A stretch of 64,000 bases of DNA from Escherichia coli (GTDB lineage Bacteria; Pseudomonadota; Gammaproteobacteria; Enterobacterales; Enterobacteriaceae): assembly GCF_003018235.1 (NCBI RefSeq), contig NZ_CP027437.1; one strand, 5' to 3'. The notes beneath the pieces were generated by a model. It had not been told where the DNA came from, made no database searches, and saw only the letters and a program-made list of their open reading frames with translations. Numbering within the stretch: position 1 is the stretch's first letter; every line of letters begins with the position of its first letter. The position numbers and the translations under genes were made by a program. Shown here piece after piece: positions 7,643 through 36,269 of this stretch.

Positions 7643-8896
7643 TCAGGCGTGCAGACGACGATGCAAACGCGTCCCGACCAGCAGAGCAATGACCAGCATC
7701 AGAGCAATAAATGCGCCGACGCCGTTCCAGCCATAGTTATGCCAGAAAACACCACCCAGCGTCCCGGCAATACTCGACCCCAGATAGTAACTGAACAGAT
7801 ACAGCGAGGAGGCCTGGCCTTTAGCGCGTTTTGCGCGGGGGCCGATCCAGCTGCTGGCAACGGAGTGGGCTGCGAAGAATCCGGCTGAGAAGAATAACAT
7901 TCCGGCAAAGATCAGCCACAGCGAGCTAAATAAGGTCATCAGTAAACCAAACAGCATAACCCCCGTCGAAAACAACATCACCGGACCGCGCCCATAGCGG
8001 GTGGTCATTGTTCCGGCTTTGGGTGAGCTCCATGTACCGGTCAAATAAGCCAGCGATAATAAGCCAACCACGGCCTGGCTGACATGCCAGGGGGAGAGCA
8101 TCAACCGATAGCCGATGTAATTAAACAGCGTGACGAACGACCCCATCAGCAAAAAGCCTTCTGCGAACAATAACGGTAATCCCCGGTCACGCCAGTGCAG
8201 ACGAAAGTTGATAAACAACGTCTTAGGTCGCAGCGAAGTCGGGCGAAAATGGCGTGATTCAGGGAGGATTTTCCAGAACATTAACGCCGAGGCCAGCGCG
8301 AAACAACCGATTGCCGCCAGCGCAATTCGCCAGTTGAAAAAGTCCGTGAAGACACCGCTAATTAAGCGTCCGCTCATGCCGCCAATTGAGTTGCCGCTGA
8401 TATACAACCCCATCGAAAAGGCCACGAAACTGGGGTGGATTTCCTCGCTAAGATAAGTCATGCCAACAGCTGCTACGCCACTTAACGAAAGCCCAATCAA
8501 GGCGCGCATAATCAAAATGCCGTGCCAGCTGGTCATCATTGTCGAAAGTAACGTACAAATGGAGGCCAACAGTAGCGCCGTGACCATCACTGGTTTGCGA
8601 CCAATGGCATCGGATAACGGGCCAGTAAACAGCAAACCGATAGCCAACATCGCCGTGGAAATGGACAGTGAAATACTACTGTTCGCGGGCGTTAAGCCAA
8701 ACTCCTGCGAAAGCACCGGAAGGATAGGTTGCACACAATAGAGAAGTGCGAAGGTTGCCAGTCCGGCAGAGAACAGCGCCAGGGTGACGCGCATAAATTG
8801 CGGCGTACCGCGTTTAATAAATTGATTTGGCTGAGAAATGCTTTGCTTGTCAGTGTCGCTTGCCGGAGCGCCATCAACAGTTGTAGTACGGCTCAC
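7643..8896 (-). CDS. ynfM: MFS transporter YnfM
   Basis: 417-aa 12-TM major facilitator; synteny between asr and ynfL. Confidence 0.85.
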   Translation of the reverse strand: MSRTTTVDGAPASDTDKQSISQPNQFIKRGTPQFMRVTLALFSAGLATFALLYCVQPILPVLSQEFGLTPANSSISLSISTAMLAIGLLFTGPLSDAIGRKPVMVTALLLASICTLLSTMMTSWHGILIMRALIGLSLSGVAAVGMTYLSEEIHPSFVAFSMGLYISGNSIGGMSGRLISGVFTDFFNWRIALAAIGCFALASALMFWKILPESRHFRPTSLRPKTLFINFRLHWRDRGLPLLFAEGFLLMGSFVTLFNYIGYRLMLSPWHVSQAVVGLLSLAYLTGTWSSPKAGTMTTRYGRGPVMLFSTGVMLFGLLMTLFSSLWLIFAGMLFFSAGFFAAHSVASSWIGPRAKRAKGQASSLYLFSYYLGSSIAGTLGGVFWHNYGWNGVGAFIALMLVIALLVGTRLHRRLHA

Positions 8897-9002: not shown

Positions 9003-9896
9003 ATGAATATTGAACTTCGTCATCTGCGTTACTATGTTGCTGTTGCAGAAGAGCTGCATTTCGGGCGCGCCGCTGCCCGCCTGAATATTTCGCAACCGCC
9101 GCTAAGTCAGCAGATTCAGGCACTGGAGCAACAAATCGGTGCCCGACTGCTGGCACGAACTAATCGCAGTGTATTGCTGACGGCAGCAGGAAAACAGTTT
9201 CTTGCAGATAGTCGGCAAATCCTGTCTATGGTGGATGACGCTGCCGCTCGCGCTGAAAGACTGCATCAGGGTGAAGCGGGGGAGTTGCGCATTGGTTTTA
9301 CTTCGTCCGCTCCTTTTATTCGGGCGGTGTCCGATACGTTATCGCAGTTTCGCCGTGATTATCCCGATGTCCATTTACAAACCCGCGAAATGAACACTCG
9401 CGAGCAAATCGCTCCGCTCATTGAAGGAACGCTGGATATGGGATTGCTGCGTAACACAGCGTTACCGGAGACGCTTGAACACGCAGTCATCGTCCATGAA
9501 CCGCTTATGGCGATGATCCCGCACGATCATCCCCTGGCAAATAACCCGAGTGTAACGCTGGCTGAACTGGCGAAAGAACCCTTTGTCTTTTTTGATCCGC
9601 ACGTAGGGACAGGGCTGTATGACGATATTCTCGGACTGATGCGACGTTACAATTTGACGCCCGTCATCACTCAGGAGGTGGGTGAGGCAATGACCATCAT
9701 CGGTCTGGTTTCCGCTGGTCTGGGTGTTTCAATTTTGCCTGCGTCATTTAAACGTGTTCAGCTCAACGAAATGCGCTGGGTGCCGATTGCTGAAGAGGAT
9801 GCGGTTTCTGAAATGTGGTTGGTCTGGCCGAAACACCATGAACAAAGTCCGGCTGCGCGTAACTTTCGTATTCATCTGCTGAATGCTCTCAGGTGA
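9003..9896 (+). CDS. ynfL: LysR-family transcriptional regulator YnfL
   Basis: 297 aa, N-terminal HTH MNIELRHLRYYVAVAEELHFGRAAARLNISQPPLSQQIQALE, divergent from ynfM. Confidence 0.85.
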   Translation: MNIELRHLRYYVAVAEELHFGRAAARLNISQPPLSQQIQALEQQIGARLLARTNRSVLLTAAGKQFLADSRQILSMVDDAAARAERLHQGEAGELRIGFTSSAPFIRAVSDTLSQFRRDYPDVHLQTREMNTREQIAPLIEGTLDMGLLRNTALPETLEHAVIVHEPLMAMIPHDHPLANNPSVTLAELAKEPFVFFDPHVGTGLYDDILGLMRRYNLTPVITQEVGEAMTIIGLVSAGLGVSILPASFKRVQLNEMRWVPIAEEDAVSEMWLVWPKHHEQSPAARNFRIHLLNALR

Positions 9897-32934: not shown

Positions 32935-33621
32935 ATGAACCTCATAAACACATTTATGACTGTTGCTGATTTCAAACGCCCCAAATTGGAGCTCCCAAAC
33001 GGGGCAAAAAAACTATTACTGCACTCTTGCTGTGCTCCATGTTCCGGTGAAGTGATGGAGGCGCTTCAGGCCTCGGGAATCGACTACACCATCTTTTTCT
33101 ACAACCCGAACATTCATCCTCAGAAAGAGTATTTAATTCGTAAGGATGAGAATATTCGCTTTGCTAAACAACACGGCGTGCCATTTATTGATGCTGATTA
33201 CGACACAGACAACTGGTTTGAGCGAGCCAAAGGAATGGAATGGGAGCCTGAACGAGGGATCCGTTGTACCATGTGTTTTGACATGCGTTTTGAGCGGACT
33301 GCGCTGTATGCCGCTGAAAATGGTTTCAGTGTGATCAGTAGCTCACTGGGCATTTCACGCTGGAAAAATATGCAGCAGGTTAACGACTGTGGACGGCGAG
33401 CCGTCGCGTATTATCCGGGCATGGTGTACTGGGATTATAACTGGCGAAAGCAGGGCGGCTCTTCCCGCATGATTGAAATCAGCAAGCGCGAACAATTCTA
33501 TCAGCAGGAATATTGTGGCTGCGTGTATTCACTGCGCGATACCAATCTACACCGCAAATCTCAGGGACGCCCTCTAATCAAAATTGGTCAACTCCACTAC
33601 GGTAAAGAAGGGCAGGAATGA
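32935..33621 (+). CDS. DUF208 / QueH-like protein (putative epoxyqueuosine reductase)
   Basis: Motif [16 protein letters not shown] near N-terminus plus conserved Cys at CTMC and YCGCVYS; start uncertain (ATG 32935 or 32956, no clear SD; track ORF from 32842). Confidence 0.6.
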
Positions 33622-33739: not shown

Positions 33740-34236
33740 CTTGTTGAAATTAGAGGAAATCTTGAAGCCATGATATGGCTTAAAATAACGTTTGATTATT
33801 TTACCTGCTGTTTGTCCCTGGTTTAAAGTCGGTTGTCTGATTTGATTACGCGCAACTGACGCTTACGTATTGAAGTAACGAGCACGAAGACACATATTTA
33901 TCAGTGCCTGTATACGTCAAGAGCAGGAGATTTATGTGCTGGTTCTCAAATGCACGCTGGCTATTGTGGCTGTAATGGCAATTTATTGTCTTGTTATTGT
34001 TCTTATGGATCACCTTACTGATTGATTTCATATTGGCGAGGTAACGGTAGTTAAGTAGAATGGCTGCGGGTGCTTGAGGCTATCTGCCTCGGGCATGAAC
34101 ACCAACGGCAGATAGAGAAAAGCCCCAGTTAACATTACGCGTCCTGCAAGACGCTTAACATTAATCTGAGGCCAATTTCATGCTAGACACATGTAGGTTA
34201 GCCTCTTACGTGCCGAAAGGCAAGGAGAAGCAGGCT

Positions 34237-34392
34237 ATGAAGCAGCAAAAGGCGATGTTAATCGCCCTGATCGTCATTTGTTTAACCGTCATAGTGACGG
34301 CACTGGTAACGAGGAAAGACCTCTGCGAGGTACGAATCCGAACCGGCCAGACGGAGGTCGCTGTCTTCACAGCTTACGAACCTGAGGAGTAA
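34237..34392 (+). CDS. hokD: Hok-family type I toxin HokD (RelF)
   Basis: 51 aa MKQQKAMLIALIVICLTVIVTALVTRKDLCEVRIRTGQTEVAVFTAYEPEE; RBS AAGGAGAAG; overlapping upstream mok-like frame from 34180. Confidence 0.85.
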   Translation: MKQQKAMLIALIVICLTVIVTALVTRKDLCEVRIRTGQTEVAVFTAYEPEE

Positions 34393-34459
34393 GAGACCCG
34401 GCGAGGGAGAAATCCCTCGCCACCTCTGATGTGGCAGGCATCCTCAACGCACCCGCACT

Positions 34460-34486
34460 TAACCCGCTTCGGCGGGTTTTTGTTTT
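34460..34486 (+). terminator. Rho-independent terminator after hokD
   Basis: aacccgc-ttcg-gcgggtt followed by tttgttttt. Confidence 0.6.
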
Positions 34487-34608: not shown

Positions 34609-34860
34609 ATGATGAACATCGAAGAACTGCGTAAAATTTTTTGTGAAGATGGCCTCTATGCTGTGTGCGTTGAAAATGGAAATCTTGTTAGTCATTACCG
34701 CATTATGTGTTTGCGAAAGAATGGGGCTGCGTTAATTAATTTTGTGGATGGTCGAGTGACAGACGGATTTATCTTGCGCGAAGGTGAGTTTGTCACTTCA
34801 TTACAGGCACTGAAAGAGATCGGAATAAAAGCAGGCTTTTCAGCTTTTGCAGAAGAATAA
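34609..34860 (+). CDS. rem: Small prophage protein, Rem-like by position
   Basis: 83-aa ORF between hokD and ydfU, the Qin position of rem (same length); sequence not independently recognised. Confidence 0.4.
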   Translation: MMNIEELRKIFCEDGLYAVCVENGNLVSHYRIMCLRKNGAALINFVDGRVTDGFILREGEFVTSLQALKEIGIKAGFSAFAEE

Positions 34861-34926
34861 ACTCATCTACAATCTTGCGCGGGGCTGAACTCCCGCTGAG
34901 TAACACCGTGCCACCGGAGAAAACCG

Positions 34927-35205
34927 ATGGCACGCAACGTAAAATATTACAATTCTGATAATTCGCCCGTTCTTGCCTGCACGCACGAGCGGTATTCTCA
35001 CGCATTCAAGTCTGAATGGTTCCAGCACCCTCCATGCACTGAAGAGCAGGCTGAATGGATAATTCAGTGTTACCGCAGGCGCGGATACGAGGTTAAGAAA
35101 GCCCTTAGTCTCGACTACCGTCACTGGATAATCTCAGTCAGATTGCCTTACTCCGAACGCCCACCGCGTCCGTCCCGTACATTCCAGCAACGCATCTGGA
35201 GGTAA
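34927..35205 (+). CDS. Hypothetical prophage protein
   Basis: 92-aa ORF with RBS GGAGAAAA; stop 1 nt before GTG start of ydfU (translational coupling). Confidence 0.4.
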   Translation: MARNVKYYNSDNSPVLACTHERYSHAFKSEWFQHPPCTEEQAEWIIQCYRRRGYEVKKALSLDYRHWIISVRLPYSERPPRPSRTFQQRIWR

Positions 35206-35206
35206 C

Positions 35207-36256
35207 GTGCGGGTATTACTTCGACCTGTTCTGGTACCGGAACTCGGGCTGGTGGTCGTTAAGCCGGGCCGTGAATCCATGCCGGTATTCCACAATACCC
35301 GGGTACTGGTGGAGCCGGAACCGAAAAGCATGCGTAATCTGCCGTCCGGGGTCGTTCCTGCCGTTCGCCAGCCGCTGGTGGAAGACAAAACATTGCTGCC
35401 GTTTTTCAGTAACGCACGGGTAATTCGTGCTGCTGGTGGTGCTGGTGCATTGTCTGACTGGCTGTTGCGCCATATTAAATCCTGCCAGTGGCCACACGGC
35501 GATTATCATCACAGTGAAACCGTTATTCACCGTTATGGTACCGGCGCAATGGTGTTGTGCTGGCACTGCGACAACCAGCTGCGTGACCAGACATCCGAAT
35601 CACTCGAGCAACTTGCTCATCAAAACCTGTCAGCATGGATGATTGACGTCATCGGTCACGCAATAAGCGGTACGCAGGAGCGTGAATTATCTCTGGCTGA
35701 ATTATCCTGGTGGGCGGTCCGCAATCAGGTGGCGGACGCGCTACCGGAAGCGGTATTACGTCGCTCGCTGGGATTACCAGCGGAAAAAAACTGCTCGGTG
35801 TACCGCGAAAGCGACATCGTACCGGGAGAGCAGACCGCCACCAGCATATTGAAACAGCGCACAAAAAATCTTGCACCGTTGCCTCACGCCCACCAGCAAC
35901 AAAACCCATCACAGGAAAAGACGGTGGTAAGCATCACCGTTGATCCAGAGTCTCCGGAATCTTTCATGAAGCTGCCTAAACGTCACCGTTGGGTTAAGGA
36001 GAAATACACACGCTGGGTTAAGACACAGCCGTGTGCTTGCTGCGGTATGCCAGCCGACGATCCGCATCATCTGATTGGTCACGGGCAGGGCGGAATGGGA
36101 ACCAAAGCACATGATCTCTTTGTGTTGCCTTTGTGCAGAAAGCATCACGACGAGCTGCATGCGAATACCGTGGCATTTGAAGAGAAGTATGGCTCCCAGC
36201 TGGAGCTGATATTTCGTTTTATCGATCGTGCGCTGGCAATAGGCGTACTGGCGTAA
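35207..36256 (+). CDS. ydfU: DUF968 prophage protein YdfU with C-terminal HNH-like motif
   Basis: 349 aa from GTG with RBS CTGGAGG; C-terminal CACCGMPADDPHHLIGHGQ...CRKHHDELH resembles HNH/zinc-hook; size and synteny match Qin ydfU. Confidence 0.65.
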   Translation: MRVLLRPVLVPELGLVVVKPGRESMPVFHNTRVLVEPEPKSMRNLPSGVVPAVRQPLVEDKTLLPFFSNARVIRAAGGAGALSDWLLRHIKSCQWPHGDYHHSETVIHRYGTGAMVLCWHCDNQLRDQTSESLEQLAHQNLSAWMIDVIGHAISGTQERELSLAELSWWAVRNQVADALPEAVLRRSLGLPAEKNCSVYRESDIVPGEQTATSILKQRTKNLAPLPHAHQQQNPSQEKTVVSITVDPESPESFMKLPKRHRWVKEKYTRWVKTQPCACCGMPADDPHHLIGHGQGGMGTKAHDLFVLPLCRKHHDELHANTVAFEEKYGSQLELIFRFIDRALAIGVLA

Positions 36257-36269
36257 GTGGAGAACGAGC

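Follow-up and report, generated by a model that had tools for sequence, protein, structure and literature searches.

The window analysed here is a stretch of 64,000 nucleotides of Escherichia coli DNA, and within it positions 34927-36256 contain a gene for a 92-residue protein followed closely by ydfU, which encodes a 349-residue protein of the DUF968 family. The locus is the rem/small ORF/ydfU/Q segment of a Qin-like lambdoid prophage, and its features are as follows.

34927-35205, plus strand: small gene, 92 aa; ATG at 34927, stop TAA at 35203-35205
35198-35209, plus strand: gene junction; GGAGG at 35198-35202, TAA at 35203-35205, C at 35206, GTG at 35207
35207-36256, plus strand: ydfU, 349 aa, DUF968 family (Pfam, PHROG 96, PGAP)
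35207-35881, plus strand: YdfU N-terminal domain, residues 1-225 (AlphaFold model)
35888-35932, plus strand: disordered linker, residues 228-242 (pLDDT <50)
35942-36256, plus strand: predicted YdfU C-terminal HNH/His-Me finger domain, residues 246-349
36032-36160, plus strand: predicted HNH core, C276 to H318
34609-34860, plus strand: rem, upstream neighbour, context only (ORF listing, annotation)
36270-37022, plus strand: ydfT/antiterminator Q, downstream neighbour, context only (Pfam Antiterm, E 5e-50; annotation)

An earlier note on this DNA had placed the end of the 92-residue ORF one nucleotide short of the GTG start of the 349-residue ORF, assigned the longer product to DUF968 and located the pair between hok and Q. 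The ORF listing and the sequence bear out the spacing exactly, the Pfam DUF968 profile (PF06147) is covered whole by YdfU residues 160-346 (257.4 bits against a cut-off of 27.8, E 8.7e-77), and the pair is flanked by hokD (34237-34392) and by Q/ydfT (36270-37022), which starts 13 nt downstream of ydfU.

The segment is 100% identical to the chromosome of E. coli strain CH4811, where PGAP annotates rem, a hypothetical protein, ydfU and ydfT and matches both gene limits exactly. The cultured phage HannyBb matches it at 99.8% identity and the cryptic K-12 prophage Qin at 92%. K-12 YdfU (b1560) is the same gene, likewise of 349 residues, with 92.3% nucleotide identity to the window copy and the same neighbours, rem upstream and ydfT/Q downstream. 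Qin is cryptic, and in MG1655 its intact 92-residue ORF (L003 4307-4585, minus strand) is missing from RefSeq, which shows a 346-nt 'intergenic' gap between rem and ydfU, whereas the window copy belongs to an apparently complete prophage nearly identical to HannyBb. Of the 5426 complete E. coli genomes, 4528 have sequences like the small ORF, at 8523 places, and 4546 have the Qin-type N-terminal half of ydfU, at 9103 places, with up to 8-9 copies per genome. About 84% of complete E. coli genomes carry the module, which is therefore among the commonest prophage modules of the species.

Just upstream of rem the prophage has its own post-segregational killing module, a complete hok/sok locus (34068-34482, plus strand) with an Rfam sok match of 115 bits at 34068-34242, the hokD ORF at the position given above and a terminator-like hairpin at 34461-34478. 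The same prophage also carries a gene for the epoxyqueuosine reductase QueH (32956-33621, plus strand, in a longer ORF from 32842; Pfam QueH, E 4e-65, with PGAP in agreement), which adjoins a truncated methyltransferase pseudogene. The epoxyqueuosine reductase of E. coli itself is QueG, and the phage-borne QueH may have to do with queuosine or a 7-deazaguanine-related modification.

The small gene upstream of ydfU

The product of the small gene is labelled a hypothetical protein by PGAP (WP_023147795.1), is basic (pI 9.7) and is matched over residues 27-92 by phrog_1212 (E 5e-36). When the window copy is compared with those of K-12, PPompW and Tritos, dN/dS is 0.13-0.24 in the gene's own frame, 1.0-3.7 in four other frames and 0.24-0.38 in the codon-aligned antisense frame, and 78 of the 79 copies from the fetched loci are intact, at 273-279 nt. 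The 92-residue ORF is a real gene under purifying selection. Antisense ORFs were also considered as genes and were rejected, being broken in the window and having a higher dN/dS than the sense frame; at 34867-35388 on the minus strand the antisense frame is split into ORFs of 85 and 84 residues. The GenBank record of PhiR42_1 has a 137-residue antisense ORF (L004 3368-3781, minus strand) instead of the 92-residue gene, and this call is probably a mis-annotation.

Three parts can be recognised in the small protein. Residues 1-26 form a leader that is predicted to be disordered and is fast-evolving in an almost neutral manner (pair diversity 0.35 nonsynonymous, 0.11 synonymous), residues 27-74 are modelled by AF2 as a beta-alpha-beta-beta core (pLDDT about 82), and residues 73-92 make up a strongly conserved, Arg-rich tail, LPYSERPPRPSRTFQQRIWR, with a pI of 11.8. 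The tail is the most constrained part, with a nonsynonymous diversity of 0.05 against a synonymous one of 0.16, and the constraint therefore lies on the protein and not on the DNA. The small protein matches no family in Pfam or NCBIfam, no solved structure and no defence-system model, and fold comparison returned only generic ferredoxin-like matches. Prophages of Klebsiella/Raoultella have a 67-residue version without the leader, in the same position and with an overlapping TGATG junction.

A paper that gives no coordinates reports a Rho-dependent terminator, described as very strong, 'upstream of ydfU' (PMC9160355). In its supplementary table the values for ydfU are markedly above those for rem, which is consistent with such a terminator in or near the small ORF. 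The small-ORF region of the window contains C-rich stretches, with a GC skew of -0.19 to -0.29 at 34920-35040 and 35120-35240. A search for RNA elements and for promoter and terminator sites within 34927-36256 found none above chance.

The Shine–Dalgarno sequence GGAGG of ydfU lies within the final two codons of the small gene, 4 nt ahead of the GTG. The junction GGAGG TAA N GTG, always with the GTG start and with an adjacent homolog of the small ORF, is found in all 76 related viral contigs that span the ydfU start together with enough upstream sequence. These contigs come from a locus search with a narrower alignment that gave close E. coli relatives only, and it was useful for the junction statistics and not for distant contexts. 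The close stop and start, the ribosome-binding site inside the upstream ORF and their conservation are together the architecture of translational coupling, and translation of ydfU may be coupled to that of the small gene.

Outside this lineage the gene upstream of ydfU varies. Full-length homologs of YdfU are found in Klebsiella/Raoultella, Ewingella, Xenorhabdus, Cronobacter, Plesiomonas, Gilliamella and Vibrio, and the small protein precedes them in Escherichia and Klebsiella/Raoultella. Its place is taken by an ANT-domain protein in Ewingella and Xenorhabdus, by a 280-residue, apparently ANT-like protein in SfV, and by unrelated proteins of 114 residues in Gilliamella and 57 residues in Vibrio. 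Most of these alternative genes also abut or overlap the start of the ydfU homolog, so that tight stop/start packing is general to the operon. The 92-residue protein is accordingly a lineage-specific companion and not an obligatory partner, as it is absent upstream of the homologs in SfV, Ewingella, Xenorhabdus, Gilliamella and Vibrio, and within its own lineage the association with ydfU is strict (76/76 loci). Phage Tritos has the small gene and ydfU without rem; the pair survives exchange of the genes further upstream, and rem lies outside the module.

The position of ydfU is kept across genera. Seven distant loci were examined, and in four of them (Klebsiella/Raoultella, Ewingella, Xenorhabdus and one metagenomic contig) the homolog stands in the early operon directly before Q, with Q genes from three Pfam families; the loci of Gilliamella, Plesiomonas and Vibrio have no called Q beside it. 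In the Klebsiella/Raoultella prophages (L007 2834-5047, L098 1537-3750) a DinI homolog and a protein with a LexA DNA-binding domain are encoded just upstream of the pair. DinI is a known RecA modulator, and these neighbours are a weak hint towards an SOS/RecA theme.

The two domains of YdfU

PHROG 96 ('HNH endonuclease') matches YdfU over its full length (E 7e-174), and the DUF968 match is present in 35 of 35 diverse homologs. The AlphaFold model, for which 35 homologs of 26-82% identity were used, reaches a mean pLDDT of 88 and divides the protein into an N domain (residues 1-225), a disordered linker (228-242) and a C domain (246-349).

The earlier note had likened a Cys/His pattern near the C-terminus to HNH nuclease or zinc-hook folds. 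The pattern is present as C276-x2-C279 ... H287 H288 ... D303 ... C310-x2-H313 H314 ... H318, and the HNH-like reading holds in the AlphaFold model, in which strands 285-288 and 306-309 and helix 311-319 form a beta-beta-alpha core. The absence of the catalytic His, which would have counted against that reading, was not what HNH-motif alignment found: H288, H314 and H318 align with H157, H185 and H189 of Gp16, a protein of Staphylococcus phage PhiNM1, and C276, C279, C310 and H313 correspond to its C145, C148, C181 and H184. Among the 35 homologs the catalytic and metal positions are kept in 32 (H288), 35 (D303), 31 (H314) and 31 (H318), and the zinc-ligand positions in 35 (C276), 26 (C279), 28 (C310) and 26 (C/H313). 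The features by which HNH or His-Me finger domains are recognised, namely a beta-beta-alpha-metal fold, a catalytic His with metal-binding residues on the helix and a CxxC...CxxC/H site, are thus all present, and on sequence and model the C domain is a predicted zinc-bearing HNH (His-Me finger) domain. We found no published assay of YdfU nuclease activity in the literature. Searching the PDB with the single sequence gave only matches to YbcO at E 0.2-0.9, and a profile of the 35 homologs found no PDB match with an E of 1 or better; for PDB relatives of YdfU, fold comparison alone is informative.

The N domain, which has no detectable PDB relative, contains a second beta-hairpin and helix at residues 105-125 of the model. 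Four positions of ligand type are conserved almost throughout the 35 homologs (C93 in 35, C/H101 in 34, C118 in 35 and H/C121 in 35), as are W119, D122 and N123. The unit mirrors the topology of the HNH zinc finger, and the position of the catalytic His is not conserved in it; the N domain is probably a putative structural zinc module of a non-catalytic kind. Aligning the N and C domains with hhalign gave a collinear alignment that pairs the Cys/His positions and is not significant (P 0.05-0.08, probability about 1%), and a BLAST sub-alignment of the N domain with the HNH domain of Gp16 has an E of 0.098. As a lead only, the N domain is possibly a degenerate HNH copy that arose by internal duplication.

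The two domains also seem to differ in their history. DNA homology to SfV starts at about 35939, just after the linker, and identity between YdfU and SfV orf45 rises from about 46% over the N domain to about 91% over the C domain, which indicates a recombination joint inside ydfU and independent histories of the two domains. In SfV (L097 2829-3818 against window 35939-37022) the orf45 C domain, like the Q gene after it, is almost the same as in the window. Proteins in which the YdfU N-terminus is joined to tail-tip J, tail-fibre or portal proteins (P0264, P0311, P0312, P0368 and P0245) were rejected as chimeric gene calls or deletion products; they look like the remains of decaying prophages or chimeric assemblies and not like true architectures.

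Possible roles of YdfU and the small protein

In our assessment the chances are even that YdfU is an HNH nickase or nuclease, expressed early, whose targets are replication or recombination intermediates; RecA may take part, and the N domain would provide targeting. On this proposal ydfU would be a delayed-early gene, lying in the equivalent of the lambda nin region just upstream of the Q antiterminator gene. In the protein, C276, C279, C310 and H313 would hold a zinc ion, H288, H314 and H318 with the invariant D303 would form the metal and catalytic centre, and the second Cys/His zinc site in the N domain, probably non-catalytic, would give DNA or protein targeting. Early in lytic growth YdfU would then nick or cut DNA at intermediates of replication or recombination, perhaps stimulated by host RecA as for Gp16, with which it shares the HNH core, and for P1 Ref; the phage would gain in replication and recombination, and the host would bear the cost.

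The 92-residue protein would be translated just ahead of YdfU from the same mRNA, the ribosome-binding site of ydfU lying inside its last codons, and we take it to be a lineage-specific accessory whose Arg-rich tail would most likely contact DNA or YdfU. Going further, the small protein and YdfU could form a dedicated two-component nuclease, in which the tail docks on YdfU, possibly on its N-terminal zinc domain, and the docked protein restrains YdfU or directs it to RecA-bound or branched DNA; this we consider distinctly unlikely, and if true it would supply a new regulatory partner for the DUF968/Ref-like HNH lineage. Along the same line, the N domain may be an old HNH duplicate, now inactive, that has been put to use for targeting. 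Improbable to a somewhat greater degree is a pairing of toxin and neutraliser, with YdfU as a toxic nuclease and the co-translated small protein as a tail-binding inhibitor or dose controller. The small gene does come first and is tightly packed, as in type II toxin–antitoxin pairs, its tail is its most constrained part (0.05 against 0.16), and expression of either Ref or Gp16 by itself is toxic (PMC4713147, PMC12817073). Set against this are the homologs of SfV, Ewingella, Xenorhabdus, Gilliamella and Vibrio, which have unrelated upstream genes in place of the small protein, the absence of PADLOC matches and of any antitoxin family in Pfam or NCBIfam (the sole NCBIfam match, SocB-toxin for rem, scores 13 bits against a cut-off of 210 and is far sub-threshold), and the reassortment of alleles, the small gene of Tritos being 85% and its ydfU 97% identical to those of the window.

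For YdfU itself, the rival to which we give most weight, unlikely as we hold it to be, is a RecA-independent, structure-specific endonuclease for branched DNA, an analogue or partner of NinG/Rap and RusA that would trim or resolve junctions before packaging. It accords with the slot that ydfU fills just before Q, where lambda has ninG, with a NinG-like role in recombination and repair as proposed by Jablonska et al. (2017), and with RusA, which is often adjacent to or near ydfU homologs (adjoining in PPompW and Plesiomonas, one gene away in Ewingella and SfV), the gene of the related YbcO likewise adjoining rusA in DLP12. The presence of RusA and ydfU within one phage, however, argues against simple substitution, YdfU has no Pfam NinG match at E 0.1 or better, and RecA is linked both to Ref, the nearest structure, and to Gp16, the nearest relative in sequence that has been tested. 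A mainly non-catalytic DNA-binding or regulatory protein with two zinc fingers, its HNH domain kept for binding, is in our view highly improbable: H288, D303, H314 and H318 are retained in 31-35 of the 35 homologs, which come from several gammaproteobacterial orders, and without catalysis this would be difficult to account for, even though the catalytic His is missing in some homologs, the N domain is an HNH-like zinc unit without it, one homolog is annotated as a transcriptional regulator, and in Gp16 zinc-ligand mutants abolish growth inhibition fully while nuclease-centre mutants relieve it partly or not at all. We would give hardly any credence to a selfish homing endonuclease or a terminase-associated HNH enzyme assisting cos cleavage, roles that phage HNH enzymes often have and with which the mosaic exchange of the gene, as in SfV, would agree. 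However, ydfU belongs to the early operon, ahead of Q and not beside the terminase, so the adjacency typical of the HK97 gp74 type is absent; none of the seven distant loci has terminase or portal genes beside the ydfU homolog, and SfV has a separate HNH gene, orf53, at the right genome end beyond the lysis genes. The syntenic position conserved across genera and the large conserved N domain are likewise unlike free-standing homing endonucleases.

Much of this was already known, as the ydfU gene, the DUF968 family and the HNH assignment are found in the literature and annotation resources, and novelty is limited to the putative zinc site of the N domain, the real K-12 ORF with its constrained tail and the residue-level link to Gp16. 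YdfU-type genes are present in most E. coli genomes, often in several copies and including Shiga-toxin prophages. Should YdfU resemble Ref or Gp16 in action, prophages would widely carry a factor that, on induction, damages the host's DNA or remodels recombination, and phage yield, antibiotic–phage synergy and prophage mosaicism could then be affected. The gains made here are modest: a firm link to an enzyme that has recently been characterised, which tells exactly which residues to mutate; a small gene that is real and that the K-12 reference annotation lacks; and a conserved second putative zinc site that marks an unstudied domain.

Comparison with characterised nucleases

According to Curtis et al. 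(2014), Gram-positive 'DUF968' proteins combine an Orf-like domain with an HNH domain; Jablonska et al. (2017) placed DUF968 together with DUF1364/YbcO in group 7 of the His-Me finger proteins, naming YdfU. The PhiNM1 representative of the Gram-positive proteins now falls under Pfam HNHc_6. YdfU scores 25.4 bits against HNHc_6 (PF16784), below the cut-off of 26.6 and without the NinB/Orf-like N-terminal part, and 14.6 bits against RecA_dep_nuc (PF16786), below the cut-off of 26.9 and again without the N-terminal part; judged by these profiles, YdfU is a relative of both families and a member of neither.

Lambda NinG/Rap and RusA occupy the same stretch of the operon as YdfU, from the replication genes to Q, and are presumed, as is proposed for YdfU, to act on recombination intermediates. 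The Pfam search of YdfU gave no NinG or RusA match, hence no sequence relationship, and RusA is not an HNH enzyme. YbcO of DLP12 (DUF1364, PDB 3G27) is a single HNH domain, with a crystallised chain of 96 residues, whereas YdfU has two domains; in the alignment the final metal-ligand position is Asp in YbcO and His in YdfU, and YdfU has no Pfam DUF1364 match at E 0.1 or better.

The solved structure nearest to YdfU is that of P1 Ref (PDB 3PLW), an HNH nuclease that cuts only RecA-bound DNA and is toxic (PMC4713147). Ref binds DNA through a basic, disordered N-terminus of 76 residues (PMC4330346), in place of which YdfU has a folded N domain.

The nearest tested relative of YdfU in sequence is Gp16, which belongs to HNHc_6 (E 5e-117), scores above the DUF968 cut-off as well and is 39% identical to YdfU residues 273-328 over 59 aa (E 2e-9). 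Gp16 is an early-expressed, RecA-binding nickase whose nicking is enhanced by RecA; it inhibits the growth of the host, and the phage depends on it for efficient replication (PMC12817073). The two proteins differ in that Gp16, of 223 residues, has a NinB/Orf-like N domain, whereas YdfU has an unrelated one of 225 residues with its own zinc site, and in that YdfU has a small upstream partner here of a kind not described for Gp16. Both genes lie in the early replication/recombination region of their phages, and all six zinc and nuclease residues that were mutated in Gp16 in a 2026 study are conserved in YdfU.
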